Shown: positions 6,130-31,186, counted from the stretch's first letter. The stretch: DNA of 64,000 bases from Candidatus Bathyarchaeia archaeon (GCA_049515895.1 JBEKTQ010000021.1:32001-96000); one strand, 5' to 3'. The notes: a model not told the origin generated them from the sequence alone. Made by a program: numbers and translations.

Positions 6130-6146
6130 GGATTAAAATTTAATCC
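6130..6146. repeat. 17-bp palindrome copy A (GGATTAAAATTTAATCC)
   Basis: Perfect 8-1-8 inverted repeat in a convergent intergenic region. Confidence 0.85.
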
Positions 6147-6239
6147 ACACACAAAACGACCTGAAGTATAGGGTGTTGAATAGAATCTACTGGTGTCGGT
6201 TAAAACAATAATTTTAATTGAAAGAAGACAAGACCTTTC

Positions 6240-6527
6240 TTATCTGGTTTTGACGTTGTAGTCTACTTCAAAGATTCTTGGGGTTATTTGCCTGGTTTTG
6301 CCAACCTTCAACTCCGCTTTGCCGCTTAGAGCTTTGATTTGTTGTGCGAAGCCTTCGACGTAATCGAGTACGCCACAGCTGTAGCAGAAGCCCCCGGAAA
6401 ACGAAACCGTGACGCTTACAGGAGTTACTGAAATCTGTTTAACCGTTATTTCCGGGCTTCTGAGCCTGTTGTAGAGAGAAATGGCTTTACTTACGAGTTG
6501 TTCAAGCTCCTGCTGACTAAGAGACAT
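6240..6527 (-). CDS. Small CxxC protein, possibly NifU-C-like
   Basis: FSGGFCYSCG motif; directly downstream of pyrK on the same strand. Confidence 0.6.
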   Translation of the reverse strand: MSLSQQELEQLVSKAISLYNRLRSPEITVKQISVTPVSVTVSFSGGFCYSCGVLDYVEGFAQQIKALSGKAELKVGKTRQITPRIFEVDYNVKTR

Positions 6528-6536
6528 AGTGTCGCC

Positions 6537-7355
6537 TTAGAAGGGTATTCTTGCGCCGTCGAATCCTAACTTTGAAATCCCCAGTTCCTCTTTGACTTCC
6601 CGCAGCTGCGCAGCTGTGAATACGGGTCCGTCTCTGCAGACTCGGTACTTGCCGATTACGCAGCTTCCGCATAAGCCTATGCCGCAGCGCATCAGCCGCT
6701 CCAAGCTTGCTTCCAATGGCAGTTTGCGTTGTTCTGTCAAGTCGAAGATCTTCTTCACCATAACCTCGGGTCCGCAGGTGTAGATCATGTCGAATTTTTC
6801 CCTATCCAGCAACTTGGCTAAGGGTTCAGTCACCATGCATTGCAAGCCATATGTACCGTCTTCAGTTGTTGTTATCAGGCTTTTCTCGTTGCAGACGCCA
6901 TTGAGCTCCCGTATGAAAAGAAGTTCGTCTTTGGTTTTTGCACCCTCCACAAAGGACAACCGTTCAGTCTTAGCCGCAAGCTGCTTTGCCAAAAACAGAA
7001 GAGGAGCTGTTCCAGTTCCACCGCCTACCAGCAAGACTCTACCTCGGCTTTCAGTGAAGCTATTCCCAAAAGGTCCCCGAACGCCAACGGTTGCGCCTGC
7101 TTCCAAACCGTGGAGATGCCGGGTTGCGTCGCCAACCTGCTTCACAGAGACGGAAACCAAGTCTTTTCCAACTTCCATTATGCTCAGCGGAATTTCGTCT
7201 ATTCCCGGGAGCCAAAGCATCAAAAATTGCCCTGGCTTAGCCTTTGAGCATAGTTTGTCGTAGATTGTGTAGGTTCTTACGGTTGGACTTTCCGTCCGGA
7301 CCCGCACGATTTCTGACGTTCTAATCGTATTAGCTGCGATGAGCGAGGCTGACAA
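6537..7355 (-). CDS. pyrK: Dihydroorotate dehydrogenase electron transfer subunit
   Basis: KPGQFLM, RGPFGNSF, GGGTG, CGPEVM and MRCGIGLCGSC...VCRDGPVF. Confidence 0.95.
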   Translation of the reverse strand: MSASLIAANTIRTSEIVRVRTESPTVRTYTIYDKLCSKAKPGQFLMLWLPGIDEIPLSIMEVGKDLVSVSVKQVGDATRHLHGLEAGATVGVRGPFGNSFTESRGRVLLVGGGTGTAPLLFLAKQLAAKTERLSFVEGAKTKDELLFIRELNGVCNEKSLITTTEDGTYGLQCMVTEPLAKLLDREKFDMIYTCGPEVMVKKIFDLTEQRKLPLEASLERLMRCGIGLCGSCVIGKYRVCRDGPVFTAAQLREVKEELGISKLGFDGARIPF

Positions 7356-8253
7356 TTTCCTTCACACTCCCAACATGTTTCTTTCTCAAGTAAACTTCTA
7401 AGCCTTTAGTTATCTTCTGGAAAACATCCGTGTCCTCCCAAGCCACCGCGGTGCCGACCTGCACGGCTGAAGCGCCTGCAAGCAGAAACTCAACAGCGTC
7501 GCGCCAGTCACTTACGCCTCCGCAGCCTATTATGGGTACATCGGGCAACTCTTCGCGAATGTCAAAGACACACCTTAGCGCCACGGGTTTGATGGCTGCG
7601 CCTGACAGTCCACCTTTGATGTTGCTTAGGATTGGCCGCGTCGTCTCCGTGTCAATCGCCATTGCCTTAAGTGTATTTATCGCCGTTAATGCGTCCGCGC
7701 CAGCTTCAACCGCCGCCTTAGCTGTGACTGCGATGTCTGCGACGTTTGGCGTAAGCTTTACGATGACGGGTTTACTAATTGCCGCCTTAACTTTTTCAAC
7801 GACTTGCGAGAGAAGCTTGGGGTTTTGACCGATTTCCGAGCCTGTAAACTGGACATGCGGGCATGAAACGTTGAGTTCCACGGCATCTGCGCCTGCTTTG
7901 ACGGCTTTCTCAGCGACTGCCTCGTATTCGTCAGCTGTGTATCCAAAGACGCTGACGATTAGCGGAATGCGAAGTATGGTTTTTGCATATTCTATTTCTC
8001 CAGCGTACTCATCGATGCCTGGGTTCGGCAAGCCCATTGCGTTTATCAACCCAGATTCAGCTTGAACCACCGTTGGATTCGGGTACCCACCTCGGGCTTT
8101 TACACCGATGGATTTTGAAACCACGGCGCCTGCCCCGCCTTTAGCAACGCGGCTTAAGGATTCTGCTGAGAAACCCAACACGCCAGAGGCAAGAATCGTG
8201 GGGTTCGGCAGCTCCAAGCCCGCGATGCTCACGCGTAACGGATTGCTTTCCAA
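7330..8253 (-). CDS. pyrD: Dihydroorotate dehydrogenase B catalytic subunit
   Basis: NAMGLPNPG, ELNVSCPH, KLTPNV, GGLSG, GCGGV, VQVGTA. Confidence 0.95.
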   Translation of the reverse strand: MESNPLRVSIAGLELPNPTILASGVLGFSAESLSRVAKGGAGAVVSKSIGVKARGGYPNPTVVQAESGLINAMGLPNPGIDEYAGEIEYAKTILRIPLIVSVFGYTADEYEAVAEKAVKAGADAVELNVSCPHVQFTGSEIGQNPKLLSQVVEKVKAAISKPVIVKLTPNVADIAVTAKAAVEAGADALTAINTLKAMAIDTETTRPILSNIKGGLSGAAIKPVALRCVFDIREELPDVPIIGCGGVSDWRDAVEFLLAGASAVQVGTAVAWEDTDVFQKITKGLEVYLRKKHVGSVKEIVSLAHRS

Positions 8254-8368
8254 ATTCTAAGTCACCTTTCTTAAAACTAGTTTGCGCAACTAAAAAGATA
8301 AAGCTTCTTTTTCAGCAAAAACTGAACCGAAAGCGCACGCAAATTTTCGGGCAAAGTTTTTTCGAGGA

Positions 8369-11719: not shown

Positions 11720-12010
11720 AATCCTTATTCCAGCTAGCTTTGAAATAAACAGCAGTTCCCAATAAAATAAAACATTCTTGCGTTTTTCTTACTTTTCCTT
11801 TTTTTCCACACGCAATAGTTGATTTCTACGTTCCAAGCGTCAAAGTAACTATTGAGTGTAAAGCTTGTGGACTTACGCCTGTCCCGAGAATACAACAAAA
11901 TCCTCAGTCCCATATTTACGAAAGACTTTGACTTTAACGCTTAATCAGAAAACGCGCGCTGGTCTGTCCCTAAAATATCAACATTTAGGTTTGGAATAAA
12001 ATCTTGATTT

Positions 12011-12034
12011 AACCAACAAACCAACAAACCAACA
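12011..12034. repeat. (AACCAACA)3 tandem repeat
   Basis: Direct reading; followed by roughly 9-bp CCTG-periodic units near 12047-12073. Confidence 0.7.
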
Positions 12035-12197
12035 ATACTGCAACCTCCTGTAAACCTGAGAAACCTGTGATCCTTATGGCATGCAATTCACATTTGGCAG
12101 CAACCTACAAAACTAACACAAATACGAAAGCATCAAGAATGTCAACGATTCACAAGCCTGAATTTCACAAAAGAAAAAAAGGGTATGTTTTAGTTTC

Positions 12198-12674
12198 TTA
12201 ATCAATCAAAGTATGTCCTTGGCCGATAAAGAGGGTACTGCAACCAAATGCTGTTACGCAATATGGCTTGCTAAGATCAATAACTACGGTAATGGGCGAT
12301 AAAGGCGTCGAAAACACTATGGGATTGCTTGCAACAGGATCATCGACAGCATAAGGGGAAGCGCATAGTGTTAGAACGTTGCATTTACTGATCTTAACAG
12401 AGGACAGATCAATTACCCATTCGAACCCATGACCATGCACCACAAGCAGGACAAAACCCCCACCGAGGGTGTCGGTTATGGCTGGCACCTCGCCGGGTGC
12501 AAGACCAAACACAACCTCCAAAGTCGCGCAACCACTAATGCAGCCCTCGCTAGTTTTCACATAAGCCCATCCAGATGCCTCTGTATTCGGATAAGTAGTC
12601 GCAAATGCTGGTGTCACAAGCAGACTTAGCATTGAGAGCAACGGAATCAAAACAAGCAAAGCTTTCCTATTCAT
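12198..12674 (-). CDS. Secreted hypothetical protein
   Basis: Signal peptide MNRKALLVLIPLLSMLSLLVTPAFA; beta-rich and Cys-containing. Confidence 0.7.
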   Translation of the reverse strand: MNRKALLVLIPLLSMLSLLVTPAFATTYPNTEASGWAYVKTSEGCISGCATLEVVFGLAPGEVPAITDTLGGGFVLLVVHGHGFEWVIDLSSVKISKCNVLTLCASPYAVDDPVASNPIVFSTPLSPITVVIDLSKPYCVTAFGCSTLFIGQGHTLID

Positions 12675-12910
12675 ACATTATACTCCTTACAATTTAAACG
12701 AAGAGAAAACTAACCCAAAAACTGGGCTCTTCGCCACAACCCCCCCTTCTCGCCCTCATATTTATTCATTTTCAAAAAAGTACTCTTACGATACCAAACA
12801 ATCTCCTCTCCCACAAATTAACATGACTTTTCCTAAATTGGGTAGACCTCAGCAATCATCAACCAAGCCGCGTGATTATTCCAAAAGACGTGTGTGGGGG
12901 TTTGGGTTTG

Positions 12911-12927
12911 GGATTAAAATTTAATCC
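12911..12927. repeat. 17-bp palindrome copy B
   Basis: GGATTAAAATTTAATCC flanked by GGGTTTGGGTTTG and AAACACAC. Confidence 0.85.
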
Positions 12928-12987
12928 AAACACACAAAAACATAAAATCGTCTATGTCTATAGAGTCTTAGGATTGGGTGAGAAAGC

Positions 12988-13215
12988 ATGAAACTCCATT
13001 GTGTGAAATGTGGTCACCTGCTACCAAAAGATGAGAGCGCAAAATCCTTGCTGCCATTTGACGTTTACCGATGTCGGAATTGCGGGGATGGTATGCTTTT
13101 TGATATGGCTACAAAAGAAGCTTATCTGATTCCTAAAAGCCTAGGACTGTTCAAGATGACACTTGAAAAAGTCAAAAAAGCAATCAACCAAATTCCGTAT
13201 GATGAAGATTACTAA
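12988..13215 (+). CDS. Small zinc-ribbon protein
   Basis: CVKCG...CRNCG; SD GGTGAG upstream. Confidence 0.7.
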   Translation: MKLHCVKCGHLLPKDESAKSLLPFDVYRCRNCGDGMLFDMATKEAYLIPKSLGLFKMTLEKVKKAINQIPYDEDY

Positions 13216-13256
13216 ACTTCCTGCAAGCGTGAACACGCCTGTATGTGTATTAGCAA

Positions 13257-13303
13257 GTTTAAACTAAATTTGTAAACCAGTAATTTTTGTGGATAAACGT
13301 GAA
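13257..13303 (+). repeat. 47-bp direct repeat, left of the CheB/CheR kinase gene
   Basis: gtttaaactaaatttgtaaaccagtaatttttgtggataaacgtgaa; matches 17357-17404 with one indel and one mismatch. Confidence 0.9.
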
Positions 13304-13570
13304 TGTAGACCTAACACCCTGCACTTTTTGCTTGTTTCTTGCTATTTTCTTGCTTCTTCGCAAAGAAGGTAACGCATATTCACTTTGGTTGGGTTCAATC
13401 CTTCGCGTCCATAATGCGATTCGAACACGGCAAGCTTCAAATCCCAAAGATCCGCGTCACTTAAGCTTCAGAACCTGCTTGGATCATCTTAAGATTCACA
13501 ATCGAAAGAACGTGTCTTCTCAATAAGAGACGGCAAGATTCTGCCGTTTTCTTCTTTGACAAGTTCCCAT

Positions 13571-16500
13571 TCACTTTTTTATTTCTTGGGGAGGGAAACG
13601 AACTGTGAAAGTTGTTCCTTTGCCTTCTTGGCTCTCAAAAGTCACTGTGCCGCCTAAAGCTTCACTCATCCGCTTAACGACAGGTAAGCCAAAACCTTGA
13701 CCCTTAGCCTTTGTCGTGAACATTGGCGTAAACAATTTACTTTTTACACCTTCAGGAATACCAACTCCAGTGTCCTTAACGGTTATGACGACGTCGTTTG
13801 CTTCCTTGTAGGCGTGTATGGAAAGCTTTCCGCCTTTAGGCATGGCTTGAACAGCATTATTCACTAAATTATGCATAATACGGTTAATGTAAGAGGAATC
13901 AACAATAACTTTACAAGCCTCAGTTTCCACTTTAACGCTTGCCTTAACGTTCTCTGGCAACCCGTTCTTTGCTAGCAACTCTTCAATTATCAGTTTTAGG
14001 TCGGCTTCCTCAACACGAGGGTTCAGAGGCCTAGCAAAATCTTGAAGATCAGCCACAATCTTGTTAATATAATCAATGTTCTTTTCAATCTCTTTCAGAC
14101 TCTCTACTGCACTCTTTTTCTCATCGCTTTCCGGAATCAAGGCCAACTCTGTTTTAGCCAAGTAAACATCGCCAGTTATAGCCTGCAACGGATTACGAAT
14201 GTCATGACCAACCATACCAGCAGTCGTACCTATTGCTGCAAGCCTCTCCGAATCTTTTAGCTGCTTAGAACGCTCATCAACAAGATTCTCCAAATTTTCA
14301 GTGTACTGTTTAATCTTCTGCCGCAATTCTTTGTGTTTACTTATGTCGCCACCGTAAATGTTAACGTAACCTTCAGCTGCTATTGGCATAAACAGCAACA
14401 GAAGAGTCATATCGCCAAAGGTTTCCTCAAGCTCAACCTGTTTGTTAGAGTCTAATGCGTCGACAACAAGTTTGTTTATGTGGTCAGGTGCGCGTTCGCC
14501 GACTTTGCTTCTCCATTTAGTTAACAAAGACGCGGCGGCGGGATTACGGTATAAAATGGTGCCAGTCCGGTCGATGCGTAATACAGTGGATGGGTTTTCG
14601 GAAGGAAATTTTGCAAGACTTTCAACTTCGCGCTGGTGCTTCTTGCGTTCAGTTATGTCTGTGAAGGATAAGACTGCGCCGTCAATCTTTTTCTCCTCAG
14701 TTAAATAGGGTCGAACTCGCATTTCATAGCAACGACCTTCGGTGCTTGTGACTTCTCGGTTGACAGGCGTTAGTTTGGTGATCACATCCGAGATTGTCTT
14801 TCTTAAATTTACAATAAGAATCCCTGAATTGATGCTAATGATTGAGTGCCCAACATCGGACGGCGAAATTTTCAAAAGTACTTGAGCTGAAACCGTAAAA
14901 CGTCTTATCTTCAGGTCGTTATCAACAATAATTACTGGTAGGTCAATGTTTGTTTGCAGATTGGCTAAGTCATCATTCAGGCGACCAAGAGCCTGATTGC
15001 GGTTCTTAAGCTCCTCGTTTAGAGTATGCAGTTCCTCGTTTCCCGACTGCAGCTCCTCTTTTGCTGTTTCCAGCTCTTCATTTGTGCTCTGCAATTCTTC
15101 ATTGCTAGATTGAACCTCTTCCATAGACGATCGCAGCTCCTCATTGGTTGCCTCCTGCCCCTCGACAAGAGTTTGCAAAGACTCCTTGGTTGCCTCCAAA
15201 TCCTCCCTAAGTTCGCGAATTTGTCGATCCTTAAGATTTTCCATCTCGACAGGCGAAACTACAGATTCAATTTCTTTAGTTGAATTTATATTCTGTGAAG
15301 TTGCTTCAGTAAATAACACAAGATAAAAAGGTTCGTCGCATTCTGGTATTTTTAGTGGTCTTATCTCGATGTTAATTGTTTTTGCGGCCTCTTTTTGCTT
15401 GAAGCGCACCGTTTCTTTGAAGATTTTATTTTCTTTTCTTGCTCTATAAACAGCAGTCTGAACTTGCGACCTCAACTCTTTCCGAATAATCTTAGTAACG
15501 TTCAGGCTCGCCGCTCCCGATTCAGGCGAAAGATAAGGTGCAACGTCTCCGCGAAAAACAAGTATGTCTAAGCTACTATTAGCCAACAAAGTCGCTGGAC
15601 CATACTCTGTCATTATCAGACGGTCGACTTTCTCTCCTAAAACAGTTAGCAGATCCACTTTTCCAATCGGTTTAGCAGTTTTATTGGCTGCGTAAGGAGT
15701 AAAGGTGCCTTCGCCTAAAATCGCTTGCGGCTGGGTTTGCTTCTTTCTGTAAATCTGGCCTTTCGGGATAATTGGTTCAAACATGTATTGGAATTTGCCG
15801 ACGCTTTCGGATTCGCCTAAAACTAAAAAACCATTCGGCTTTAATCCGTAATGGAAAATCGGCAATACACGCTCGTGAAGATGAGAATCAAAATAAATGA
15901 GTACATTTCTGCACATAATGAGGTCTATGTTGGAGAAAGGCGGATCTGTTGTTATGTCCTGTTTTGCAAATATGCACATGTCACGTATGGATTTTATTAT
16001 TCGGCAATGTCCATTGTCAGAAGTGAAAAATCGTTTAAACCTGTTCTGGGAGATTTTGTCTTCTACACTTTTTGGATATGCTCCTTGGCGAGCTTTCTCA
16101 ATATTCTTTTCATTTGCATCGGTTCCAAAAATTTGAATTCGTATCTCTGTTATGGCTTTTTCTTCTAGGAATTCTCGAAGTGCTATGGCGAATGAATAAA
16201 CTTCTTCACCTGTTGAACAGCCAGGAACCCAAACCCGTATCGACTCGTCGGGAGACCTTTTCGCTACAAGTTCTGGAAAAACCTTTTCTTTCAAAGCCAC
16301 GAAAGTGTTCGGTTCTCTAAAGAAGCTTGTTACGCCGATTAGCATGTCATCAAACAATGCTTGTTGCTCACTTGGCTGTTTCCGCAAATACTCAAGGTAC
16401 GCCTTCATGTTTTCGGCCTTGTTGATGACCATACGGCGCGTGATGCGCCGATTTATGGTTGTTTCTCTGTAATGGGTAAAATCAACGCCGAAAGAAGCTT

Positions 16501-17191: not shown

Positions 17192-17356
17192 TTACAAACC
17201 TCACAGCCAATAAAATCGATATAATTCTTGACCGAAATTTATGCTCAGGCTATAATTTAAAACTTGGTACTATCGAATTGAAAAACCGCGCACGAATCGT
17301 TTTTCTACCAACTTCTTAATCGCAGGTGAATCAAGTTCACCTTTTCTTTTACGAAG

Positions 17357-17404
17357 GTTTAAACTAAATTTTGTAAACAAGTAATTTTTGTGGATAAACG
17401 TGAA
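17357..17404 (+). repeat. 48-bp direct repeat, right of the CheB/CheR kinase gene
   Basis: gtttaaactaaattttgtaaacaagtaatttttgtggataaacgtgaa. Confidence 0.9.
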
Positions 17405-17521
17405 ATTAAACGATTAGCGGATAAACTTAACTTTCTATCAAGTTGCTTTGAATTGCCTCTCACGGTGGATGCGGGGCGACAGGGAATAATCACCCTCAGT
17501 TTGGCGTTAAAAACGATATTT

Positions 17522-17662
17522 TAGTCCAAGTACTTCATTCTATCTGACCTAACAGACAAAACTTACAATAACTTTTTAACATCGGACAAGTTTTAGTAAA
17601 TTAAGGGAAACGGCATGGAAGAAAAATTTAATAACCATGTCGGAGGAAATCGTTATTTAAGT
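17522..17662 (+). repeat. ~140-bp dispersed repeat, copy 3
   Basis: Same orientation as copy 1, with about 10 differences. Confidence 0.95.
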
Positions 17663-18084
17663 ATAATCGTTTCTGAAGCATTAAATACTGGCTTCTTCGG
17701 CTGAAAACGTAACTACTTCTGATTCAGAAGCACACAATATCACGAAAGAACAACTAACTCTGTTTTAATGATGGACTGTTATTATCTTGAAACGCTCGTG
17801 ATACCAAGTCATATGAACCAGAAATGGATGTTGCGGAGCTCGCCAGAATATTTCAATTTCTTACATATTAGTGTACGTGAAATCTGCTTTAAATCGAGTT
17901 AAAGCTTTGAGTGCATAGGAGCGCACGAAATTAGTGCGGGGGGATAGGAGACGGCTAGTAATACTGCCAAAATAGACGAAGTATCAGATGCTCTGCATAA
18001 GGTTTTCTGCGACCACGCACGGGCACAAGCACAGAAAGTACAACCAGAGAAGCAATGATAATTTGAAGGCGGTTTGATATGGAA

Positions 18085-18346: not shown

Positions 18347-18368
18347 AAGTTGCTCAACCCTTACTTTT

Positions 18369-20663: not shown

Positions 20664-20761
20664 CTTTCCACCTAAAATTTTCCAAGAAAGAACTGCTAAA
20701 AACTGGTCGGAGACATTTAGCTTCAATTAGCCATAAGGTTAATGTTGCCTGCCATCCAAGA

Positions 20762-21274
20762 TTGCACCAGATGCAGAAATCAATCTTGGTGCCCGCCTGC
20801 ATAAGCTCAATCCGAATCGCAGTCCTGCCTCTCTGGTTCTACCTTTACAATTCAGGAAACATCGTCCTGTGCTTGGCTGTGTTCGCTGCCGCAGCATTCA
20901 CAGACCTTATTGATGGTTTCTTGGCGCGAAGATTGAAGGGGAGCACTAGGTTTGGCGCCTACTACGATGCCGCAACCGACTTTGCCTTCGTGATTGGCAT
21001 TTTCACGTTTTTCAGTTTGAAAGGTTTCTACCCGGTTTGGCTGCTGCTTCTCATAACCGTGTCGTTCGCCCAATTCATCGCTTCAAGCGTCTACGCCAAA
21101 AAACTTCACGATCCTATCGGCAGATTCACGGGTAGTGCGCTGTACATAGGTGTCGTGTTAACGCTTGTCATTCCTTCAAAGGCAACATTCAGCTTCGTAG
21201 AATACGCTTTCTTTGGATTTTTCTTATTGTCGCTTGCGAGCCGCGCTGTAAGCTTTGCCAAAAAACCCGCTTAA
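20762..21274 (+). CDS. CDP-alcohol phosphatidyltransferase family protein
   Basis: TDLIDGFLARR...FGAYYDAATD signature. Confidence 0.88.
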   Translation: MHQMQKSILVPACISSIRIAVLPLWFYLYNSGNIVLCLAVFAAAAFTDLIDGFLARRLKGSTRFGAYYDAATDFAFVIGIFTFFSLKGFYPVWLLLLITVSFAQFIASSVYAKKLHDPIGRFTGSALYIGVVLTLVIPSKATFSFVEYAFFGFFLLSLASRAVSFAKKPA

Positions 21275-21536
21275 AACAGCATTTGCAACTAGCTTTTGTT
21301 TAGGTGATTTTTTGTTTGCTCATGCATGCTACACTGCGGTCAAAATAGACAAAACGAAAAGAAGCATCTAGATGAGCAAAATAGGGAACTAACGAACCAT
21401 TTTTCATGTGCCCCAATGTTTTTCATCCAAGCATTTTGAAAACTGAAATTCAAGAACTCTCAAACTAAGAATAAAGAAAGGATTTTTGCATCCCTTCTTT
21501 TGACTCTTTACCTGCAACTACAAGCGAAGGATTTTC

Positions 21537-21992
21537 TTAGGTTTTCTTAGGCTTTCTAAGCATTGAACCAGCATAAAGCCCGATGAAACTAACCACTAAC
21601 CCAACGACAAAGTCAACCGTTATCACAAGTGCTGCATAAGCTGACCAATCATGATTTGTCCAACCACTAGTTTTGAACATGCTCGTTATAGAGTCCTTGA
21701 ACCAAGGGCTCGCTAAGGGATTGGCGATCCAAATCCCGAGGAAGAACATCAGCGTAAAAGCAGACAAGACAACAATACTGCCAATTGTTCTAATTCTCGA
21801 CTCGTCCTGAATCTTTAGCGCAAACACGAAGCCGACAATTAATGAAGCCACCAGCCACGCAATAATATAAGCAAGCAGGTCACTCATCGAGTTAGAGTTT
21901 AGTGGAATAAACGCAACCAGCAAGATAGCGTCAAGCGCTAAGCCAATGAGAACTAAAGAAGCCGTTGCCATAACCACATCACTGAATTTCAA
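21537..21992 (-). CDS. Four-TM membrane protein
   Basis: Hydrophobic helices; TTG start at 21992 after SD GGAGGTGA. Confidence 0.75.
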   Translation of the reverse strand: MKFSDVVMATASLVLIGLALDAILLVAFIPLNSNSMSDLLAYIIAWLVASLIVGFVFALKIQDESRIRTIGSIVVLSAFTLMFFLGIWIANPLASPWFKDSITSMFKTSGWTNHDWSAYAALVITVDFVVGLVVSFIGLYAGSMLRKPKKT

Positions 21993-22406
21993 ACAATCAC
22001 CTCCTCCCAAGCTGAAATGCAAAAATACTATTTTCTTGTTATTAGCTTAAATAATTTGTGATGTCGATTCATTCACAGTTGTTTTTCCGTCACAAATTGA
22101 AGGTTTCATGCAATCAACATGCCGTAGTGAATCATCTGAAACCTCTACCGCAAACTTTAAACCTAAGGCTAAGCTCACACGCAAAGTGAAGTGAGAGAAG
22201 AAGCCGCTGGCAGAGGCTCATCTGACCAAGGCTATCAGACTCACACAATCGCACGCAAACAACAACCCTTGCAAAAAGTTGCATGCGACCAAAAGATCGC
22301 TATTTCTCTCCCAAGAAAACAATCGAGATTTAGCCGCCAAAAGCGGCTCACATCACTTCCAAAATTAACAGCAGACACTACAAGATAAGAATGGAGGTGA
22401 AATTGA

Positions 22407-22718
22407 GTGACGAAGTATTATGTAAAGTGGACAGTGAATCCTCTGGAAATCCCCAAAAATCCAGAAGAAAGAATGAAACTCTGGCAATCAGCTCTCGAAA
22501 TGGTTAAAGCAGACATGAAGGCTGGGATTGTCAAAGAATGGGGGTTTGCTGCTGATTCAAGTGAAGGATTCGGTATCACGGAATTCGCTAACGAAACAGA
22601 CCACGCCGCTTACGCATTAAAATGGATACCAGTCCTCAACAGTGTAGACAAACCAGTTCTTTCAGTGGACGAGTGTTTAGAGGTATTCCAGAAATTGACT
22701 ACTTCGATGAAGAAATAA
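22407..22718 (+). CDS. Small alpha/beta protein (DUF3303/GYD-like)
   Basis: Strong SD GGAGGTGA before GTG; KEWG...EGFGITE pattern. Confidence 0.7.
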   Translation: MTKYYVKWTVNPLEIPKNPEERMKLWQSALEMVKADMKAGIVKEWGFAADSSEGFGITEFANETDHAAYALKWIPVLNSVDKPVLSVDECLEVFQKLTTSMKK

Positions 22719-22848
22719 TTAAATTCACTTCCTCCTCTTTTTTTTGTGCGATATAGGTGATATGCGCGTGGATGTAAGTGGAAGAGAGAATAAGAAAACA
22801 ATTATTGAAAGATCGAAAAAACAAGTCAGAAAAGTATTTTTGGATTTG

Positions 22849-22865
22849 GGATTAAAATTTAATGA
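22849..22865. repeat. 17-bp palindrome copy C (GGATTAAAATTTAATga)
   Basis: 15/17 match, preceded by TTGGATTTG; convergent intergenic region. Confidence 0.7.
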
Positions 22866-22992
22866 AAAAAACATGGTTTTTACTTCGAAATTATTAGTTG
22901 TCGAGTCACGGAAAGATTTTTTTATGCAAGAAAGTTGGTGTGAAGCACTGAGAGAAGGAAAGATAAGGTTTAATCTTTCCCAAAAGCTGCAC

Positions 22993-23883
22993 TTAAGGTA
23001 TCGCAGAGGATTTTTGGAAATCTACGTAGTACCACAACACAGTGTTATTGATAACGGAAACTGTGCGATTTCCATTTTGATAGGGTTTTCCAACCGTGAC
23101 ATTGACCATCTTGTCCCACTGCGGCTCCACGTAAACAAGCCCCCTGTTTGTGGTGTTGAAACAGTCAAGTGCATGACTTTGGTTGCCTGGAAAATACACG
23201 AATGCGTAACCACATTCATATCCCGCTCTTAAGGCGTTGTTTCTAAAGTCAGTGGCGAAATTGACGCAGGTGTAGCTTCCTTCAATGTAAGGATGACTAC
23301 CAGTTTTGTCTGACGCGACAAACTGTTGGGCTTCAGAATAGGTTGGATTCAAAGGGCTTGCGCTGGCAACCAAAGTTGTTGCCAAAATAACCAAGAGAAA
23401 AACTGATAGACCGAGACTCCAGCATTTGCCCAAGCCTTTAGCCAGAACACGCGCTTTTTTCACAATTCTGTTAACGTTTTTTTCTCCTCTCTCGACAAAA
23501 TCAATGCGTGCTTGCAGTTGCTGCCTCAAGAAGGCTTCAAAATTGGGATTGCTTTTCAACTCGTTTACTGGTTTTCCCTTTTGAAACAGGAACCAGACAA
23601 TTAATAGAACAGCAAAAGCCGAGCAATAGAACTTCGCAACCCAAGTTGAGACCAGCAAAAGGACTAACACTCCATAAACTGGAGTCAGCAACAATATCCA
23701 CATCAGCTCAAGCAAGTTATGAGCTTGTAATAAGACAAATCCGAAAGGTGAAAGAAAAATGATAGAAGCGATAAACCACGCGAAATGTTCGCGATAGAGA
23801 GATTTGAGAATTCTGAAAAGAGTGAAGTAAACTAGCATAATAGTAAGCAAAACAGGAGGGATTGCAAGCCACAAACCCACCAT
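22993..23883 (-). CDS. Multi-pass membrane protein with C-terminal transglutaminase/papain-like domain
   Basis: N-terminal TMs; YTCVNFA...SHALDCF...VEPQWD. Confidence 0.65.
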   Translation of the reverse strand: MVGLWLAIPPVLLTIMLVYFTLFRILKSLYREHFAWFIASIIFLSPFGFVLLQAHNLLELMWILLLTPVYGVLVLLLVSTWVAKFYCSAFAVLLIVWFLFQKGKPVNELKSNPNFEAFLRQQLQARIDFVERGEKNVNRIVKKARVLAKGLGKCWSLGLSVFLLVILATTLVASASPLNPTYSEAQQFVASDKTGSHPYIEGSYTCVNFATDFRNNALRAGYECGYAFVYFPGNQSHALDCFNTTNRGLVYVEPQWDKMVNVTVGKPYQNGNRTVSVINNTVLWYYVDFQKSSAIP

Positions 23884-24056
23884 CGATTACCTTCTTGTTT
23901 AAACTTTTCGGGATTAAACTTGCTGCGTATTCCGTCAACAGCTATTGTGTCGAACTATCTCTTAGATTTATCTGATTAAGACCATTTTTTGGCTAAACCT
24001 TGATTCAATATGATGAATGCTACTTTGCGCAGCATGAACTTTGGATTTGGGTTTTG

Positions 24057-24073
24057 GAATTAAAATTTAATCT
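24057..24073. repeat. 17-bp palindrome copy D (GAATTAAAATTTAATCT)
   Basis: Preceded by TTGGATTTGGGTTTTG and followed by TTCTCTCTCG. Confidence 0.75.
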
Positions 24074-24118
24074 TTCTCTCTCGCCTATCGTCGCTGGTTC
24101 AAGATTAGGTGTTGTCAA

Positions 24119-25339
24119 TTAGGCAGTTGGAAGCAATTGATTTTTGCAGGGATCTTTTGCAAACAAGAACACAACGGCGGCTGATGCTACACCGCATATC
24201 CCAAACATGGCATATAGGATTTGAAAGTTGTTCGCGTAAAGGTTAAGCAACAAACCGCTTAAAATTAATCCCGCAATAACGCCAACGCTCCGAAACGATC
24301 CGTTCAAAGACATCATAGTGCCTCGAAAACCCGGAGCCTGTTCGAGAGCCAAACTGTTGAGACCCACAATTGACATACTGGCAAAACCTGCTGATACCAT
24401 CCACATTGCAGCAGAAGCCCACGCGTTAGGCATAAAGGCGATCAAAACTGCGAATATTCCCGAAATTGCACTTGCCACGACAGCAAGAGGTTTCCTCCCG
24501 ATTCGATTAATCAATCGCCCCCCAACTATTACACCCATAATCCCCATTGCTGAAGCGATCGAATAGAAAATCGCCCCCGTGCTCAAAGACTCATGAAAAT
24601 ACAATCTGTAAAACGACACCGCATACACAGGCGCCAAGAACGCGAAGTTAGCAAACGCGGTCCCGATTTGGCAAGCAAGCACGGATTTCTTTGACAAGAT
24701 TTGTTTAAAAGCCTCCAAGTATCGAGGCTTGTTTACAACCTCTTCTTGACATGGTTTCGAGGGAAGAGCAAAAAAGCCAAATAGCAAACTAAATACGGAT
24801 ATTGGAAGGATAACCCACAAAAGAACAGGGCGCCATCCAGCAGCATTAGTAATTAGGCTCGTCATTTGAGGCATAACCAAATTCGCAATAAATACGCCCC
24901 CCATTACTAACCCTACTGCCATTCCCTTTTTCTCCAAAGGCAAAAAATCTCCAATTAAAGCGAAAACCACAATGCCAATCATTGCTGCGCCTATTCCAAG
25001 AAAGAGACTGAAGAACAGAATAGACGCAAAATCTGGAGCGAAAAACGAACCTAAAGCTCCGACGCCAAAAAGCGCAACACCAAGCAAGAACAACGATTTA
25101 TGTTTGAACCTGACTGTCAAAAAACCCATGACAAAACCTACAATAAGACCCACAAACGAGCTGATGGTCAAAATCTGGCTTGCAGTTCCCACAGTAACTT
25201 TTAGCGACGAGGCCACGTTTACCATAGCATTGCTTAAGAAAACCTCAAATGTGAAGGTTAAGAACATGCCCAAAAGCAAGGCAGGCACGAACAATTGGCT
25301 TTTAAGACTTTTCTTAGCAGCAGACCCTTGGATGCTCAT
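24119..25339 (-). CDS. MFS transporter
   Basis: About 12 TMs; GGRLINRIGRK motif A-like; PLEKKGMAVG. Confidence 0.92.
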   Translation of the reverse strand: MSIQGSAAKKSLKSQLFVPALLLGMFLTFTFEVFLSNAMVNVASSLKVTVGTASQILTISSFVGLIVGFVMGFLTVRFKHKSLFLLGVALFGVGALGSFFAPDFASILFFSLFLGIGAAMIGIVVFALIGDFLPLEKKGMAVGLVMGGVFIANLVMPQMTSLITNAAGWRPVLLWVILPISVFSLLFGFFALPSKPCQEEVVNKPRYLEAFKQILSKKSVLACQIGTAFANFAFLAPVYAVSFYRLYFHESLSTGAIFYSIASAMGIMGVIVGGRLINRIGRKPLAVVASAISGIFAVLIAFMPNAWASAAMWMVSAGFASMSIVGLNSLALEQAPGFRGTMMSLNGSFRSVGVIAGLILSGLLLNLYANNFQILYAMFGICGVASAAVVFLFAKDPCKNQLLPTA

Positions 25340-25558
25340 GTTTTTCTATTATTTATGTAACTAATATATCAGATTATAGTAATTATGTTTGGACTTTTTA
25401 GAATTTTTATTAAGAATTGGCGCATGATTCCTGTGTTGTAGCGTGGCCTGAAAGTATCTGTATACTAAATGTTGTGATTGAAATAGGTTAACTCTTGAGT
25501 TATTCCTAAATTTGAAATAGCACTCTTATATCATATTACAGATCAGTAAATAAGTAAA

Positions 25559-28500
25559 ATGGCGCAAAATCAAAAATTGCCTTCTGAAATCCTAGCCGAG
25601 CCAATTCTGGTGGGAAGAGAAAAAGAACTTGAAGAGTTGAAAGGATGTCTAGATGAAGCTTGGTCGGGAAAAGGAGTAACCCTCTTTATTTCTGGAGAGG
25701 CTGGCGCAGGAAAAACCAGACTTACAACAGAATTCCTAAACATCGCCAAGAAAAAACAAGTAACTGTTTTAACTGGCTGGTGCCTAAGCGATGTCGCAGT
25801 CCCCTACTTTCCATTCATGGAAGCCTTTGACTCTTACACATCAAGCATAGAAGACAATGAAGTAACGATTGCTAACCAACAATTAAGTTTGAAATCATGG
25901 CTTATTAAGAACCAATCTGAAGCAAACGAGACAATTCGAAACACCTCTCCGCAGGTGTGGAAAGATCAAGTGTTTGTGGCAGTCGCTAAAGAACTGCTGT
26001 TCTTATCAACGAAAAAACCCTTGATTTTGGTTTTGGAAGACATACACTGGGCGGATTCCGCCTCTCTTTCGTTGCTTCATTATCTTGCACGCCAAGCGGT
26101 TTCTGAGAGAATTCTCATCGTAGCAACTTTCAGAAGCGAGGAACTTAATGTACGTGTTGAAGGTCATTCTAATTCCCTGTCCAAAGAACTACTTCTAATG
26201 GGACGTGAGGATCTCTACCGAGAAGTGAAACTTTCCAGTCTCACTCGGGATGCCGTTCGGAGAGTTGCTGAGAACATGTTAGGTGGATCGGTGCAGCCAG
26301 ACCTTGGGGAAAAATTAGCAGCCAACACTATGGGCAATCCTCTTTTCCTCGTGGAATCTCTAAGAATGATGCATCAACAAGGAAGCCTCGCCAAAACTAA
26401 CGGTAAATGGAGTCTGCGCGTTGATAACTTTGAAATTCCCAAAAAAGTCAAGGACGTGATACTGCGAAGATTAGAAGCCTTGAAATCCGATCAAAGACTA
26501 ATTTTGAACGCAGCATCTGTGGTGGGAGAAAAATTTGATCCTAAGTTGATCGCTGCCGTTGTTTCTCAGGATTAATGTTGGAGTTCTTACAACATTAAAT
26601 GAGATTGCAAAAACTACCCTAATGATACATTGTGATGCAAGCTGCTGCAGATTTGATCACGCAAAATCTCGAGAAATGATATACGAGGAAATTCCCCCAC
26701 TTCTGAGAAAAGAATATCATTCAAGGATTGCAAAGAAAATTGAGGCTGACCAAGAAACTGAAGGTTTCTCCATAAATGACTTGGCGTTTCATTATGATGA
26801 AGCGGGAAATAAGGAAAAAGCCGTGAAATACTCATTACAAGCGGGTCAAATTGCTCTCTCGCGATTCAGCAACGTGGAAGCCATCAAACACTTCAAATAC
26901 GTCTTGGAGAGCATCGCCCAAAATCCTGAAAACGCTGAAGCAAGAAGAACAGCTCAGGAAGGATTAGGCGACGCTTACTACGCCAACAGCGCGTTCAAAG
27001 AGGCAATGAGAACATTCGAGGATTTGGGCAAAAGCGAAACAGGCACTGTTAAGTTGCGGGCGCTCCGAAAAGCAATGGAGTGCGCATTCCAATGTATGGA
27101 TATAGCTCGTTTGATGGAGCTTGTGAAGGAAGCCGAGCCATATGCTGCCGCCGATCGTTTAGAAAGCGCAAGAGTTCTAATGAGCAGAGGCAGAGTTTAC
27201 ATAATGCGACATTTGGTAACCCTCGCCCCTGAAGATCGCATGCACGCACTTGAAGACATGAGAGCTGCTTTGCGCGTTTTTGAAGAAGAGTATTCTCTTT
27301 GGGACGCCGCTTTAGCCTTGATCGGAGCAGGGACAATGCATCCTTTGTTCGGCGAGCCTCAAAAGGGGATAGCGGAGTCGTTGCGTTCGATTGCGCTGTT
27401 TGAGGAATTGGGCGATTTTCGCTTTCAAATGGAGGCGTGCTGGGCTGCAGGCTTAGTATTTGAGCAGATGCTATTGCTTAATAATGAAGCATTGGGTGTG
27501 CTTGCGAAGATTATAGAAATTGATGAGAAAATGAAGATGGGTGATTATAATAGATTGGTTTACGCGTATGCATTCTCAGCTTCGACTCATGAGCAAATGG
27601 GTGATTGGGAAGGAGCGTTGTCTTTCAGTCTGAAAGCTCTGGAGGCGTCGAAGAAGACGGAGAACTTCATAGCTCCGGGGATTGTTTACGCCAACCTTTG
27701 TAGGGAATATGCTAGGCTTGGAGACATGAAGAATGCGGAAGAATACTTCGAGAAACTCATAAAACTGCCTCCTGAAGTACAAAAGAACATTCTTACAAAG
27801 GGGGAATTAGCTAAAGCTGTCTTTTTTGCAGGAAAGGGTCAGTGGAAGGAGTCAAACCAGTTCTTCAAAGATCACATCGAATCTTTTAAAGTGGACCAAG
27901 TCCGCGGAGATGAAGTGCGTGGAAGATTGTTCTATGCTTGGGCTCTCGAAAGGCAGGGACGATTGGAGGAAGCAAAGGTACAACTCGAGTATGTCCAGAA
28001 GTTGTATCGAGATACGGAGGAAATGTTTGCTCATGTTAGTTTGCAAGCGAATTTGATGGTGCCCAAAAAGGTAGAGGTTGGTCAGATATTTGAGGCGCGT
28101 CTTTGCATCGTTAATGTTTCCAGAGGACATGGTTTGCTGGTTAGAGTTGAAAACGATCTGCACCCCGAATTTAGAGTTAGAAACCTTCCGCAAGAGTATA
28201 CGAACAAAAACGAGTTTTTTGATGAAAAGGAAAGAAAACTTGAACCGTTCCAAGTCACGACACTCAAGGTTAAGCTGGAAGGCACAAAAACGGGTGTTTT
28301 CGACTTTAATCTGAAGGTAGTTTACAGAGATGACTTAGGAAAAATTCGAATATGCAACCCTGAGCAATATAACATCACTGTTGAACCCGAAAGTGCGGGA
28401 GTTGGAAGGCAAGAACTAATTGCGCCCAGGTCAGCAGGCAAACCTCACGTCAAAACCTCCGAAAGCGAGAAAACTGAAGCAGGACCAACTGTTATTTTGG

Positions 28501-28850
28501 ATGCAAAGTTTGAATTTGCGTCTGAACCATCAAAGATGGCCTTTGATTATCTGGTTAACGCTTTTATTGAAGATTACATGCGACGCAGAATTGCACAAGA
28601 AAAAGCTGGCTGGAGATCTTTAATGAGAATTATTACTAAGGGAAAGTTGCCGAGGTCCAGTTTGTATGGCTATGGAGGACGCAGGGGAAAAGCGTTAATT
28701 GAGTTGGAAAGTCGGGGTCTAGTTGAAGCTCGATTCTTTCCAGGCGAAAGGGGCCGCGGAGGCAAAACCCTGAAAATAAGAGTCGCTTACGAAAAAGAAG
28801 TAATAAAACGCATAGTTGATAGCAGAATAATGAACAAGAAAAATGCATAA
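25559..28850 (+). pseudogene. STAND/AAA_16 ATPase-TPR-Ig-like-wHTH protein, frameshifted at ~26572
   Basis: LVGREKE, GEAGAGKT, LEDIHWAD and GNPLF in 25559-26575; continues RFDHAKSRE, TPR repeats and a C-terminal wHTH in 26559-28850. One extra T in CAGGATTAATGTT separates the frames. Confidence 0.85.
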
Positions 28851-29060
28851 GATTATTTTGCGCTCTATTCAGTAGAATCAGCAATTATTTAACGCAATAG
28901 ACTGTTTAACGGCGTAAATGTGCTCATTCAGCTGTGATTCACATAATGATCTCTTATTTTTGGTTTTTAAGCAGTTTTTTCGGCGCTTTACTACTAGAAA
29001 AATGATTAAGTATTTTTCTAGACCCAGAACATGACAAAGATATCAGTGGAGGTGAAAAAC

Positions 29061-29663
29061 ATGAAGATGAAAAGAATTATGATTTTGGTCTTCTCATTGG
29101 CTTTGGTTGTGGTGTTTGCTGCGTCTACGCCTGCTTTAGCATGCGGGCCACATCATGAGACTTTCACATGGACAGGAATTGGAGTTGGAACCAGTCCTGG
29201 AACCGTCTATGTGGACAGTAATAAGGTTGAGCATGTAACGGGACATACTGCAGAATGGACGTACTCTGCAGCACCATGGGGGACGGGAGCGCCTACAGCC
29301 ACAAGCACAGAATATTTCACCCTTAATTTGAACACACTCACCGGAACCGATTTTGCGCTGAACGTAGGTACCTACCCAGGGGCAGGAGTCACTAATGGCG
29401 TCGCATTCATTAAATTCAATGGACTTGGCATGTTCACCTGCAATGGACCAACTGTAAGCGCTTATGGATACACAGCAACTACAGGGCACTCATACTTCGG
29501 ATTACTGAATTCGGCTGTCGCAACGCAATTCGGCACGAGCGGGACACTGAAAGGACTGTACGCGGTAACTGAATCATCTACTGGAGTAACCGTAAGTAAT
29601 CCGACAACCCACGCACCTCTGTATACCATCGCTGTCGAAACTTACACGTATTGGTTCATTTAG
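29061..29663 (+). CDS. Secreted Thr/Gly-rich beta-strand protein
   Basis: SD GGAGGTG before ATG 29061; signal peptide ending TPALA. Confidence 0.7.
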   Translation: MKMKRIMILVFSLALVVVFAASTPALACGPHHETFTWTGIGVGTSPGTVYVDSNKVEHVTGHTAEWTYSAAPWGTGAPTATSTEYFTLNLNTLTGTDFALNVGTYPGAGVTNGVAFIKFNGLGMFTCNGPTVSAYGYTATTGHSYFGLLNSAVATQFGTSGTLKGLYAVTESSTGVTVSNPTTHAPLYTIAVETYTYWFI

Positions 29664-29887
29664 CAAGACGAACCTGTGTGAACAAGTCTGGATAGAGAAA
29701 ATAGGAATTAACCCAATTTTTTTCTTTCTCATAGGCTTTTTCTACGCTGTGCAGATCTGATTTATTTTCATGAAAACTTTTAAAATCGACTAATTGTGTA
29801 AGGTGACTGACAGGGTTGGCACGCGCACGTGTACCTGGGAGTGAGTACCTAGTCGTAAGCGTGTGCGAGTTCGAGAGAGAGAGAGAA

Positions 29888-29904
29888 AGATTAAAACTTA
29901 ATCC
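29888..29904. repeat. 17-bp palindrome copy E (AGATTAAAACTTAATCC)
   Basis: Preceded by (GA)n and followed by TACACACAC, like copy A. Confidence 0.75.
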
Positions 29905-30148
29905 TACACACACCTTTTACGCTTTCTGAAGGTTTGCGGAATTTTTTATTGAGGTTGATTTGGATAGAAATAATGTGGTGTTGGTATTTGTTGGTAGTAT
30001 TCTTTTGAAGAAGAAAGTTTTTGCGCTCTCTTCACTGTTTTGCGCAAATAATTATTCTAAATATGTTTTCTAGGTTAACACACCTTTTTAAGCACCATTG
30101 GATTTTAGTTCAATCAACAAGAATCACGTGATTATTAAGATTTAAGAG

Positions 30149-31090
30149 ATGGAAATTAGCGTGCTAACGAAGCCAAGCGTCCAAATTGAAGAAATGGCAT
30201 GTTTCATGGACGCCTGCTATAAAGGAAAGGTTTCAGTTAATTCGAAAATAAAACTGAAAGACTTTGATTCTGGGTGGGCGCAAAATGAAGAAGCCAAATT
30301 CTTGGGAAAAGGCAAATTAAAGGAAATGGCTAATACACTGTTAGAGCAGAACCGCCGAGAATTGGCGAAAGCGCAGGAGTTGCTTTATGCAAATAATACT
30401 TACGCTTTGCTTGTGATCTTGCAAGGTATGGATGCAGCGGGCAAAGATGGCATTATCAAACATGTAATGTCGGGAGTTAACCCGCAAGGTTGTCAGGTAA
30501 CTAGTTTTAAGCAGCCGTCTATTATGGAGTTAGAGCATAATTTTTTATGGCGACAGGTTGTGGCTTTACCTGAAAAAGGCAAGATTGGCATCTTTAACAG
30601 ATCATACTACGAAGAAGTCTTGATTGTTAAAGTTCATAGAAATCTTTTAGAAAACCAAAATCTTCCGGCGAGAAAATATAACAGCGAGTTTTGGAAAAAC
30701 CGCTATGAGGATATAGCAAATTTTGAACATCATCTTGTTCGAAATGGAACAGTGATTCTAAAGTTTTTTTTGCATATTTCCAAAAATGAACAGGAAAAAC
30801 GCTTAGTTGAACGATTAAACAACCCTGACAAATATTGGAAATTTTCGGATACTGACATTAAAGAAAGGGATTATTGGGATGATTACATGAAAGCTTATGA
30901 GGACATGATAAACAATACAAGCACGAAATGGGCGCCTTGGTATATTATTCCAGCAGACTATAAATGGCTAGCTCGTTCACTAGTTGCCGACATAATGACC
31001 ACAAGCATACTGTCTTTGGGGATCAAATTTCCCATGTTGAGTGAGCAACAATTTGAAGCAATTGAAGAAGCCAAAAGAAAACTTGAATGA
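30149..31090 (+). CDS. ppk2: Polyphosphate kinase 2 family (polyphosphate:nucleotide phosphotransferase)
   Basis: QGMDAAGKDG, GVNPQG, FNRSYYE, KFFLHISK, APWYIIPAD.KW. The true start may lie slightly downstream. Confidence 0.93.
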   Translation: MEISVLTKPSVQIEEMACFMDACYKGKVSVNSKIKLKDFDSGWAQNEEAKFLGKGKLKEMANTLLEQNRRELAKAQELLYANNTYALLVILQGMDAAGKDGIIKHVMSGVNPQGCQVTSFKQPSIMELEHNFLWRQVVALPEKGKIGIFNRSYYEEVLIVKVHRNLLENQNLPARKYNSEFWKNRYEDIANFEHHLVRNGTVILKFFLHISKNEQEKRLVERLNNPDKYWKFSDTDIKERDYWDDYMKAYEDMINNTSTKWAPWYIIPADYKWLARSLVADIMTTSILSLGIKFPMLSEQQFEAIEEAKRKLE

Positions 31091-31169
31091 GCATCATAAT
31101 AGTAGACATGATAAGTTATCATTCTAGAAGCAGGCAGGTTTCGTTGGTGACAGATTCAAGCGGTTGTTT

Positions 31170-31186
31170 GGATTAAAATCTAATTC
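31170..31186. repeat. 17-bp palindrome copy F (GGATTAAAATCTAATTC)
   Basis: Preceded by TTGTTT and followed by TCTTTTC. Confidence 0.6.

Follow-up and report, generated by a model that had tools for sequence, protein, structure and literature searches.

In a 64,000-nucleotide stretch of a Candidatus Bathyarchaeia archaeon genome (GCA_049515895.1, JBEKTQ010000021.1:32001-96000; hereafter, the window), we analyzed a 17-bp palindrome, GGATTAAAATTTAATCC, six copies of which (sites A to F) lie in gaps between genes of the first half. The best-supported reading, which we hold with moderate confidence, is that this 17-bp core is the joining point of exchangeable gene cassettes. The cores form a genus-wide family that is blind to gene orientation, the two sides of the sites assort independently, and homology between loci breaks at the cores; moreover, the identity of two cassettes between species exceeds that of a housekeeping gene. 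Few archaea are as abundant in sediments and peat as the Bathyarchaeia, and to our knowledge almost nothing is known about gene gain and exchange in this group. A cassette-boundary site, together with cassettes found in more than one species, offers a practical starting point for studying horizontal gene flow in a lineage that has not been cultured.

The six copies in the window

The window spans positions 32001-96000 of contig C21 of its genome (G000; 3.18 Mb in 53 contigs, 44% G+C, 100%-complete). The initial annotation, made from the sequence alone, described six copies of one 17-mer. A copy is present at each of the six coordinates, but only sites A and B match exactly, and those beginning at 22849, 24057, 29888 and 31170 carry 2/17 mismatches each; hence, the observation is real and partly confirmed, although it was overstated. 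Dinucleotide-preserving shuffles yielded 0.00 exact matches by chance and, at up to three mismatches on both strands, 0.22 strand-matches, compared with the 13 found. The clustering of six sites within 25 kb is likewise far from the 0.24 expected at the genome-wide density (Poisson p = 2e-7). A seventh match, at 26525 (three mismatches), falls within a STAND gene, lacks arms and looks like chance. Beyond 31186, no match with up to three mismatches occurs before the window end, in agreement with the remark that the housekeeping half contains no full copy.

The gap types given in the annotation were recovered with a crude open reading frame (ORF) caller: sites A and C are convergent, site B is divergent (counting a 75-aa ORF), and sites D, E and F are tandem. 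Since a palindrome of odd length has a single central base, the AAAA run noted on the plus strand of all six copies is simply the identity of that base, which is A in 6/6 window copies and in 7/7 copies of the contig. As for the arms next to the cores, two recurring types had been proposed, with D and F as the inverse of A and E (Table 1). The assignments of A, E and B hold, as does the inverted match between the right arm of D and the left arm of E, which have TTTAATCTTTCTCTCTC in common; however, the left arm of D is of the TTTGG type and not the inverse of A and E, and the arms of F are degenerate. At site B, contigs of two runs revealed a G inserted at 12909, in the G-run of the left arm, in part of the population, and so arm lengths vary like microsatellites. 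A search of Rfam with window positions 1-34000 returned no match at E<=1.

A family of sites in the genome and the genus

At up to two mismatches, G000 contains 30 sites, none of them within a credible gene, although one overlaps an 85-aa ORF of doubtful status. With one mismatch at most, the motif is found in 68 of the 119 other genomes of the genus, with 0-29 copies in each, compared with 0-1 for a reversed-pattern control, and in the other genera of the order a single one-mismatch match was seen in 1/16 genomes. At the same threshold, G000 has 16 copies versus 0-6 in its closest relatives (82-85% identity in a conserved gene), which indicates that the copy number rises and falls by lineage. 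The sites reside in DNA of lower GC content (42.0% versus 44.1%, p = 5e-6), and for 11 of the 30 a contig end is no more than 3 kb away (p = 6e-5), as expected of variable or repeated DNA. AT-rich viral contigs (24-46% GC) gave 46 exact matches, of which 3/46 had one arm-like side and none had both; we read them as chance. No published description of the palindrome family was found in the literature searched, where the four occurrences of its 13- or 15-mer were incidental.

Core, arms and flanks

The core has an 8-1-8 layout (TAA-N3-TTA) with an almost invariant centre, ATTAAAWTTTAAT. In a profile of 129 distinct half-sites, conservation is 92-98% for the six bases nearest the centre (TTTAAT, reading outward) and 77-88% for the two that end the half core (CC), and G makes up only 1-7% at the next nine bases; across species, conservation reaches 95-98% within the central 13 bases (positions 4-6 and 12-14). 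The arms that follow are (TC)n, (CA)n or CCAAACC-type runs and are tied to the core, 8/9 genomic GAGAGAGAGA runs lying within 40 bp of one. Arm types pair freely (both arms are of the same type in 5/52 sites), and variants of the outer core go with the arm on the same side, e.g., AGATT with (GA)n. Compensating changes were seen in none of the 13 cores with a double mismatch. Hence, the halves vary independently, which favours recognition of double-stranded DNA by a symmetric protein over selection for a hairpin.

Past the arms, non-coding flanks of 70-270 nt follow on both sides, each a member of one of numerous families conserved across species, and it is because of these flanks that site-bearing spacers are long (median 482 bp versus 134 bp genome-wide). 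Solo half-sites with typical arms are few (approximately 3-5 by reading, versus 30-49 full cores). Among neighbouring sites up to 15 kb apart, the central base agrees in 45 pairs and disagrees in 22 (p = 0.007, the pairs not being fully independent). It is not tied to one flank family, A and T being about equally frequent in the copies of 'TC-long', the G-poor flank to the left of site A. Homologues of TC-long are present in G000 itself (C8:108655 and C44) and in G016, G052, G096, G076, G019, G127 and G130. Within it, a block of approximately 110 nt (window 5925-6075, from GTCTGTGTGTGC... to repeated GAGTGA words) is nearly invariant across species and could be a small RNA on either strand; RNAalifold gave -16.0 for the inward strand and -5.7 for the outward strand of TC-long, whose low-complexity, nearly invariant sequences hold no usable covariation. 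One other flank family carries hairpin-like words (GGGGGTAAAAA...TTACCCCC) and was seen at L012:4550-4790, outward of L012:5979 and of G000 C21:124200, and at C24:19542.

Homology at the sites is one-sided

For 141 distinct sites (30 of G000 and 111 taken from loci in about a dozen relatives), all outward half-flanks were compared, and pairs alike for at least 70 nt from the centre were retained. There were 148 such homologous pairs. In 147 site pairs the likeness is confined to one side, in none does it extend to both, and one was unassessable; thus, the element has never been copied as a two-sided unit. The initial annotation had taken a constant core with shuffled arms for the mark of recombination products, and this proved correct on a larger scale than it had envisaged, given that whole 70-270-nt flanks assort independently. 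TC-long illustrates the pattern well: of its 11 copies, spread over 8 genomes, nine terminate in a core whose partner on the other side differs every time, and two have no core. At C8:108922 of G000, the left flank of site A is joined to the right flank of site B, and homology to the latter begins at the first core base. Similarly, locus L079 has the core of site E and everything to the right of it in common with the window (82% identity), with a different left side and arm, and loci L032-L034 have the left arm of site F and GGATTAAAAT in common with it, diverging at the dyad centre.

Orthologous loci of different species have no site in common. At site A, 8/8 closest relatives keep the pyrK-side genes with no core and with different left neighbours, and upstream of the orthologous radical-SAM gene the core of site F is absent from G003, G013, G042 and G045. 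Both sites therefore stand at synteny breaks, where the annotation had proposed to test for enrichment of the motif. It had also proposed to look for empty-site alleles; no precise empty site was found, and wherever one flank was conserved the other was unrelated.

Metagenome contigs from four peat or wetland runs were compared with window positions 12001-32000, and those of runs X1 and X2 bridge C-D, E and F unchanged. No core-to-core deletion and no excised or inverted joint was present in these contigs, which can report presence only, since rare variants drop out. Loose ends at 12911 and 12927 correspond to other copies of the repeat; one contig joint connects 22801 to 12898 at a low depth (3.5), and another, from a related strain, connects 13295 to 24064, and we draw nothing from either.

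Segments between sites recur in other species

The sites are arrayed in relatives. Between adjacent sites up to 6 kb apart, there are 59 intervals with a median spacing of 1208 bp, of which 31 hold exactly one ORF and 7 hold none. Their cargo includes GNAT, methyltransferase, TIR, nitroreductase, RDD, CMD and radical SAM genes in either orientation. A 1251-bp core-to-core segment with a PRC-barrel/DUF5752 gene in G052 (C4 760-2010) recurs in G053 (C5 1578-2827) with 93.3% identity over its full length; the likeness extends from the left core through the final base of the right one, with no relatedness in either outer flank. The HCS-like housekeeping gene of the same two genomes is approximately 78% identical, as estimated from the mean column identity of the alignment. 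In the second case, a GNAT cassette of G013 (C20) and G053 (C18) is approximately 92% identical through the gene, its promoter and the left arm, compared with 86% for the HCS-like gene. Here the likeness ends inside the core, after GGAATAAATTTTAAT, a rare core variant common to both loci, and past it one genome continues with a (CA)n arm and the other with a CCAAACC arm.

The segments of the window itself repeat this pattern in a weaker form. The ppk2 gene between sites E and F had been named as one of three cargoes bracketed by neighbouring copies. The 1.13-kb unit occurs with 86-94% identity in approximately 14 other contexts, with unrelated outer flanks; at L075, a core with a TC-type flank lies 82 nt downstream of it, and L028/L029 have a decayed core. 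The proposal that neighbouring copies bracket movable cargo is thus upheld by the two core-to-core segments found in different species, but the three segments of the window itself occur elsewhere mostly without cores.

Position relative to genes

Among 129 classified gaps, 54 are tandem, 33 convergent and 30 divergent, and 12 sites fall inside a crudely called ORF; the proportion of approximately 2:1:1 (tandem:convergent:divergent) indicates that gene orientation is of no account to the sites. The median distance is 204 nt to the 140 gene ends that they face and 220 nt to the 127 gene starts, of which only 9 are within 60 nt; in G000, six facing starts have a core at 22-60 nt. The arm type is not associated with whether a start or an end is faced, and the genes in or next to the cassettes often have a TATA-like box of their own nearer the start codon. 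Moreover, site-adjacent genes share no common function. Hence, the sites have no fixed spacing to gene starts and adjoin no coherent set of genes; the annotation had named a fixed distance to the transcription starts of a coherent regulon as a reason to abandon its reading. Their placement suits neither a gene promoter, nor a terminator, nor a regulon operator.

Among 266 flanking proteins, the largest clusters number five members each, PRC-barrel/DUF5752 and TrmB-like, and neither is a recognisable recombinase. PRC-barrel/DUF5752 is the most frequent neighbour of a core, its five members coming from four sources (among them L159:1065-1727, L175:1888-2550 and 3009-3398, and G000 C3:2057-2617). 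Of the 17 TrmB-family genes, three flank cores (G000 C21:36951, C5:128471 and C27:56117) versus approximately 0.3 expected; we regard this adjacency as a lead and not as a result.

Candidate enzymes

In G000, 11 tyrosine recombinases score above the cut-off, some of them XerA-sized, and none is on contig C21. The best match to the integron integrase (TIGR02249) reached 38.4 bits versus a cut-off of 265, and a resolvase search gave one sub-threshold match. The Y1 HUH transposase (PF01797) had 0 matches in G000, whereas the controls matched in 6/14 genomes; the search for a Y2 transposase gave no match, its controls being silent as well. In five motif-rich genomes, integrase matches were found 1.4-5 kb from a site (G042:C132, G053:C46, G052:C22 and G053:C5), in an inconsistent pattern. 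The 75-aa zinc-ribbon gene to the right of site B was considered as a cognate factor and discarded, as only 7/120 genomes have it.

Comparison with known systems

The initial annotation had likened the copies to pdif modules or integron cassettes. As in integrons, mostly single, functionally unrelated accessory genes are arrayed with a recurring site between them, site-to-site segments are shared across genomes, and each joint copy is a hybrid of two neighbours. Integrase-less arrays are known, and integrons have been reported in Archaea (10.1101/2022.02.06.479319; PMC9668308). Thus, the absence of IntI alone does not exclude integron membership. However, attC is a 57-141-bp imperfect hairpin with RYYYAAC/GTTRRRY ends, which acts as a folded single strand, whereas the present element is a nearly perfect, AT-rich palindrome of only 17 bp, whose arms of approximately 9 nt are of low complexity and which shows no sign of hairpin selection; on reading the site boundaries, GTTRRRY was absent. 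Likewise, integron cassettes are co-oriented and mostly promoterless, whereas the segments described here occur in either orientation and several have TATA-like boxes of their own. In the pdif modules of Acinetobacter plasmids, as here, short inverted-repeat sites bracket modules with no dedicated recombinase gene adjoining, and a housekeeping recombinase acting in trans would fit such a layout by analogy.

Sites of the dif type have an 11-6-11 layout with conserved arms and TAA-N6-8-TTA (PMC2958812; PMC11840125). They normally occur once per chromosome, and in the present element, unlike dif, the spacing is TAA-N3-TTA, the centre is conserved and the edges vary. The pdif/integron comparison would thus extend to exchangeable cassettes meeting at joints, but not to the sites, which resemble neither attC nor dif; no recombinase was found to match. 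With REP and bacterial interspersed mosaic elements (BIMEs; REP, repetitive extragenic palindrome) and with miniature inverted-repeat transposable elements (MITEs) (PMC3733652; PMC3184786), the family has in common that short palindromic intergenic repeats are patchy, clustered and found in any type of gap. REP/BIME systems, however, have an HUH transposase, a tag and hundreds of copies, whereas here no Y1 HUH transposase was found, and there is no compensation in a hairpin and only tens of copies; no GTAG or CGTC tag was found on reading the sites, which are flanked by (GA)n, (GT)n or TTTGGG arms. A MITE is copied as a whole element, with both of its terminal inverted repeats and a target-site duplication, and in the present family 0/147 pairs have both flanks in common. 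Hence, the element fails the defining tests of attC, dif-type, REP/RAYT and MITE sequences, and the REP-like alternative put forward in the annotation finds no support, in view of the missing Y1 HUH transposase, the lack of hairpin selection and the one-sided homology.

A model of cassette exchange and the points against it

Assuming that the core joins cassettes, we postulate that each site would be a head-to-head joint of two independent end-modules, each consisting of a half core (TTTAATCC), about nine bases free of G and a non-coding flank of 70-270 nt that belongs to one of the many families. The stretch between neighbouring sites, mostly one accessory gene with its own promoter, would behave as an exchangeable cassette, and breaking and rejoining in or at the core would reshuffle the sides and move cassettes between loci and species. 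Possibly, a dimeric protein with sequence specificity recognises the palindrome in double-stranded form and stimulates the exchange, which may be site-specific or site-stimulated, and the single central base may give the site a weak polarity. More tentatively, since we think it rather doubtful, there may be a dedicated cassette-exchange system, in which a dimeric enzyme acting in trans, neither an integron integrase nor of the dif type, would cut and rejoin at the palindrome centre. In such a system, promoter-bearing single-gene cassettes would be inserted either way round, excised and passed between species, the central base would set the polarity, and the G-free arms would be scars of cutting and repair. 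In practical terms, metagenomes can be searched with the 17-mer for cassette arrays and pools of accessory genes, and the palindrome is a defined bait for a reader protein; if a recombinase is involved, it would represent a new site-specific system with a compact palindromic target.

Several observations speak against the core as a cassette joint. No cognate enzyme was found. In G088, which has 24 sites at up to one mismatch, neither of the two full-length tyrosine recombinases above the cut-off is near the arrays; the family of the larger one is present in 90/120 genomes, including the motif-free G041, G063, G071 and G126, and it was not found in the motif-bearing G073, G095, G044, G104 and G108. 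The centre of the site is best conserved and the outer arms vary, which is the opposite of lox, FRT, dif and attC and fits a transcription-factor or TATA-type site better. Furthermore, ordinary homologous recombination at any conserved 17-30-bp repeat would produce the same one-sided homology and the same breakpoints. The 111 sites of the relatives come from loci picked for holding sites, often in clusters, so that arrays are over-represented and pairs are non-independent, and all genes were called with the crude ORF caller. The bins G052 and G053 are contaminated to 6% and 9%, respectively, and the contig of the cassette they have in common could belong to another strain; nevertheless, its unrelated outer flanks would stand.

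The window segments weigh in the same direction. In approximately half of its contexts, the ppk2 unit has no core (G044, L027, L030, L031/L036, L037 and L076, judging by the DNA examined). The D-E block is found with the same gene order and 68-87% identity in G019:C53 without cores, and the C-D gene has a homologue in G013:C26 (approximately 73%) that is alignable in the coding region only, with no core in the 4-kb locus. The zinc-ribbon copy at C19 also lacks a core, and the C44 copy has one 230 nt away. Hence, cores are strongly associated with module joints, but modules can occur without them. Taken together, the interpretation of the initial annotation, a cassette system built on recombination sites, is partly supported.

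Alternative explanations

The main alternative is that the core is a binding site of a host protein (a two-way promoter with a TATA box and a TFIIB-recognition element (BRE), an operator of a dimeric regulator, or a nucleoid or boundary site) that heads or insulates short non-coding units, the shuffling being a by-product of homologous recombination between dispersed copies. We deem it unlikely, if serious enough to be weighed at length. On the strand with the central T, the core reads TTAAAT, which is among the top TATA hexamers of G000 (4.9-fold enriched upstream of genes and normally located at -55 to -40 from start codons), and its ATTAAA presumably fits the BRE pattern RNWAAW. An invariant centre with variable edges, in a 5-3-5 or 7-1-7 layout, is the pattern of dimeric regulators, the conserved 70-270-nt flank families could be small outward transcription units, and the six G000 gene starts close to a core, as well as the excess of TrmB genes next to cores, point the same way. 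In Pyrococcus furiosus, BRE-TATA-BRE promoters with a symmetric TATA box are reported to fire both ways from starts 49-50 bp apart (PMC6640164). The core resembles these promoters, and the 'promoter reuse' described elsewhere (PMC3575422), in its dispersal to unrelated loci and in its symmetric, AT-rich box, both strands of which hold a TATA-like hexamer; it differs in the lack of a fixed start spacing, in its occurrence in convergent gaps, in its tighter conservation and in its G-free arms. The 95-98% conservation at positions 4-6 and 12-14 exceeds what a TATA box needs, and ordinary G000 promoters are not G-free downstream of the TATA box. Few facing starts are close to a core, convergent gaps are as common as divergent ones, and the cassette genes are equipped with TATA boxes closer to their start codons. 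Runs of at least five T on the outward strand are rarer than A runs (103 versus 157 facing starts and 126 versus 226 facing ends), so that outward transcripts ending at T-runs are unsupported. The functional diversity of the site-adjacent genes also speaks against the operator of a regulon, whether Fur-type (7-1-7) or Lrp-type (5-3-5), and G000 lacks any Fur-family gene. Should the core nonetheless be a protein-binding site, it would be a portable regulatory site that drives genome rearrangement.

Two further explanations appear improbable. A selfish MITE- or REP-type repeat, copying itself into intergenic DNA and gathering where constraint is low, with an incidental link to cassette boundaries, would agree with the patchy distribution in the genus, with lineage bursts such as that of G000 relative to its closest relatives, with the restriction to intergenic, low-GC variable DNA and with the existence of degenerate copies. 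However, such a repeat should be homologous on both sides and leave precise empty sites, neither of which was found, and the 100%-complete genome has no Y1 HUH transposase. The absent GTAG/CGTC tag, the absence of hairpin selection (no compensating cores, free arm pairing) and the scarcity of solo half-sites argue against it as well. The least probable of the readings considered here is a two-way terminator or a replication-linked structure (cruciform, fork barrier), with rearrangement arising from breakage at the palindrome. Some cores indeed lie 3-12 nt past a stop codon, T-runs are commoner on the strand reading towards the core, and the half core in L032-L034 indicates that a break at the dyad centre did occur. 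Yet the core has at most four T in a row, which makes a weak archaeal terminator, divergent gaps occur at chance frequency (30/129), 17 bp is short for cruciform extrusion, and extended complementarity of the arms is not favoured, as the few sites with same-type arms attest.

Annotated features and additional observations

Table 1. Sites, flanks and cargo in the window (positions counted from its first nucleotide).
Feature	Position	Strand	Description
TC-long, G-poor flank of site A	5855..6129	-	holds a conserved block of ~110 nt
Site A	6120..6155		(GA)n arm, exact core 6130-6146, (CA)n arm
Site B	12890..12940		TTTGGG arm, exact core 12911-12927, AAACACAC arm
Zinc-ribbon gene, right of site B	12988..13215	+	75 aa, two CxxC pairs; multi-copy cargo
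Site C	22839..22875		core 22849-22865 (2 mismatches), left arm TTTGG-type
C-D cargo	22993..23883	-	296-aa membrane-like protein; no Pfam family at E<=0.001, best E 0.82
Site D	24040..24085		TTTGGG arm, core 24057-24073 (2 mismatches), (TC)n arm
D-E cargo	24119..29663		MFS transporter, STAND NTPase (two ORFs), secreted protein; Pfam matches
Site E	29865..29915		long (GA)n arm, core 29888-29904 (2 mismatches), (CA)n arm
Non-coding flank, site E to ppk2 unit	29905..30026	+	common to L079, partly to L028/L029
ppk2 unit (E-F cargo)	30009..31153	+	own TATA-like box; PPK2 family, E 5.5e-67
Site F	31153..31200		degenerate left arm, core 31170-31186 (2 mismatches), T/C-rich right arm

The C-D gene had been called transglutaminase-like, a label that its Pfam search does not bear out (Table 1). 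The STAND NTPase of the D-E block (25559-28850) is read as two overlapping ORFs of 338 aa and 763 aa, and the syntenic gene of G019 is one ORF of 1076 aa; the reading frames thus suggest a frameshift or a split gene in G000. The zinc-ribbon gene has six matches in G000, several of them at contig ends, and at its C19 locus a GC-rich stretch bounded by GCGCGC runs (58150-58280) stands in place of a core.

A second dispersed repeat lies at window positions 13257-13327 (GTTTAAACTAAATTTGTAAACC...) and is present in at least 10 other places of the genome, in three of which (C9:51702, C27:55804 and C26:38800) a core or half-core adjoins it immediately. Window positions 13314-13445 are 80% identical to the 3' end of a tRNA-Leu gene and the DNA downstream of it (C2:181737-181873; tRNA at 181662-181747), and this segment may be the attachment-site remnant of an integrated element.

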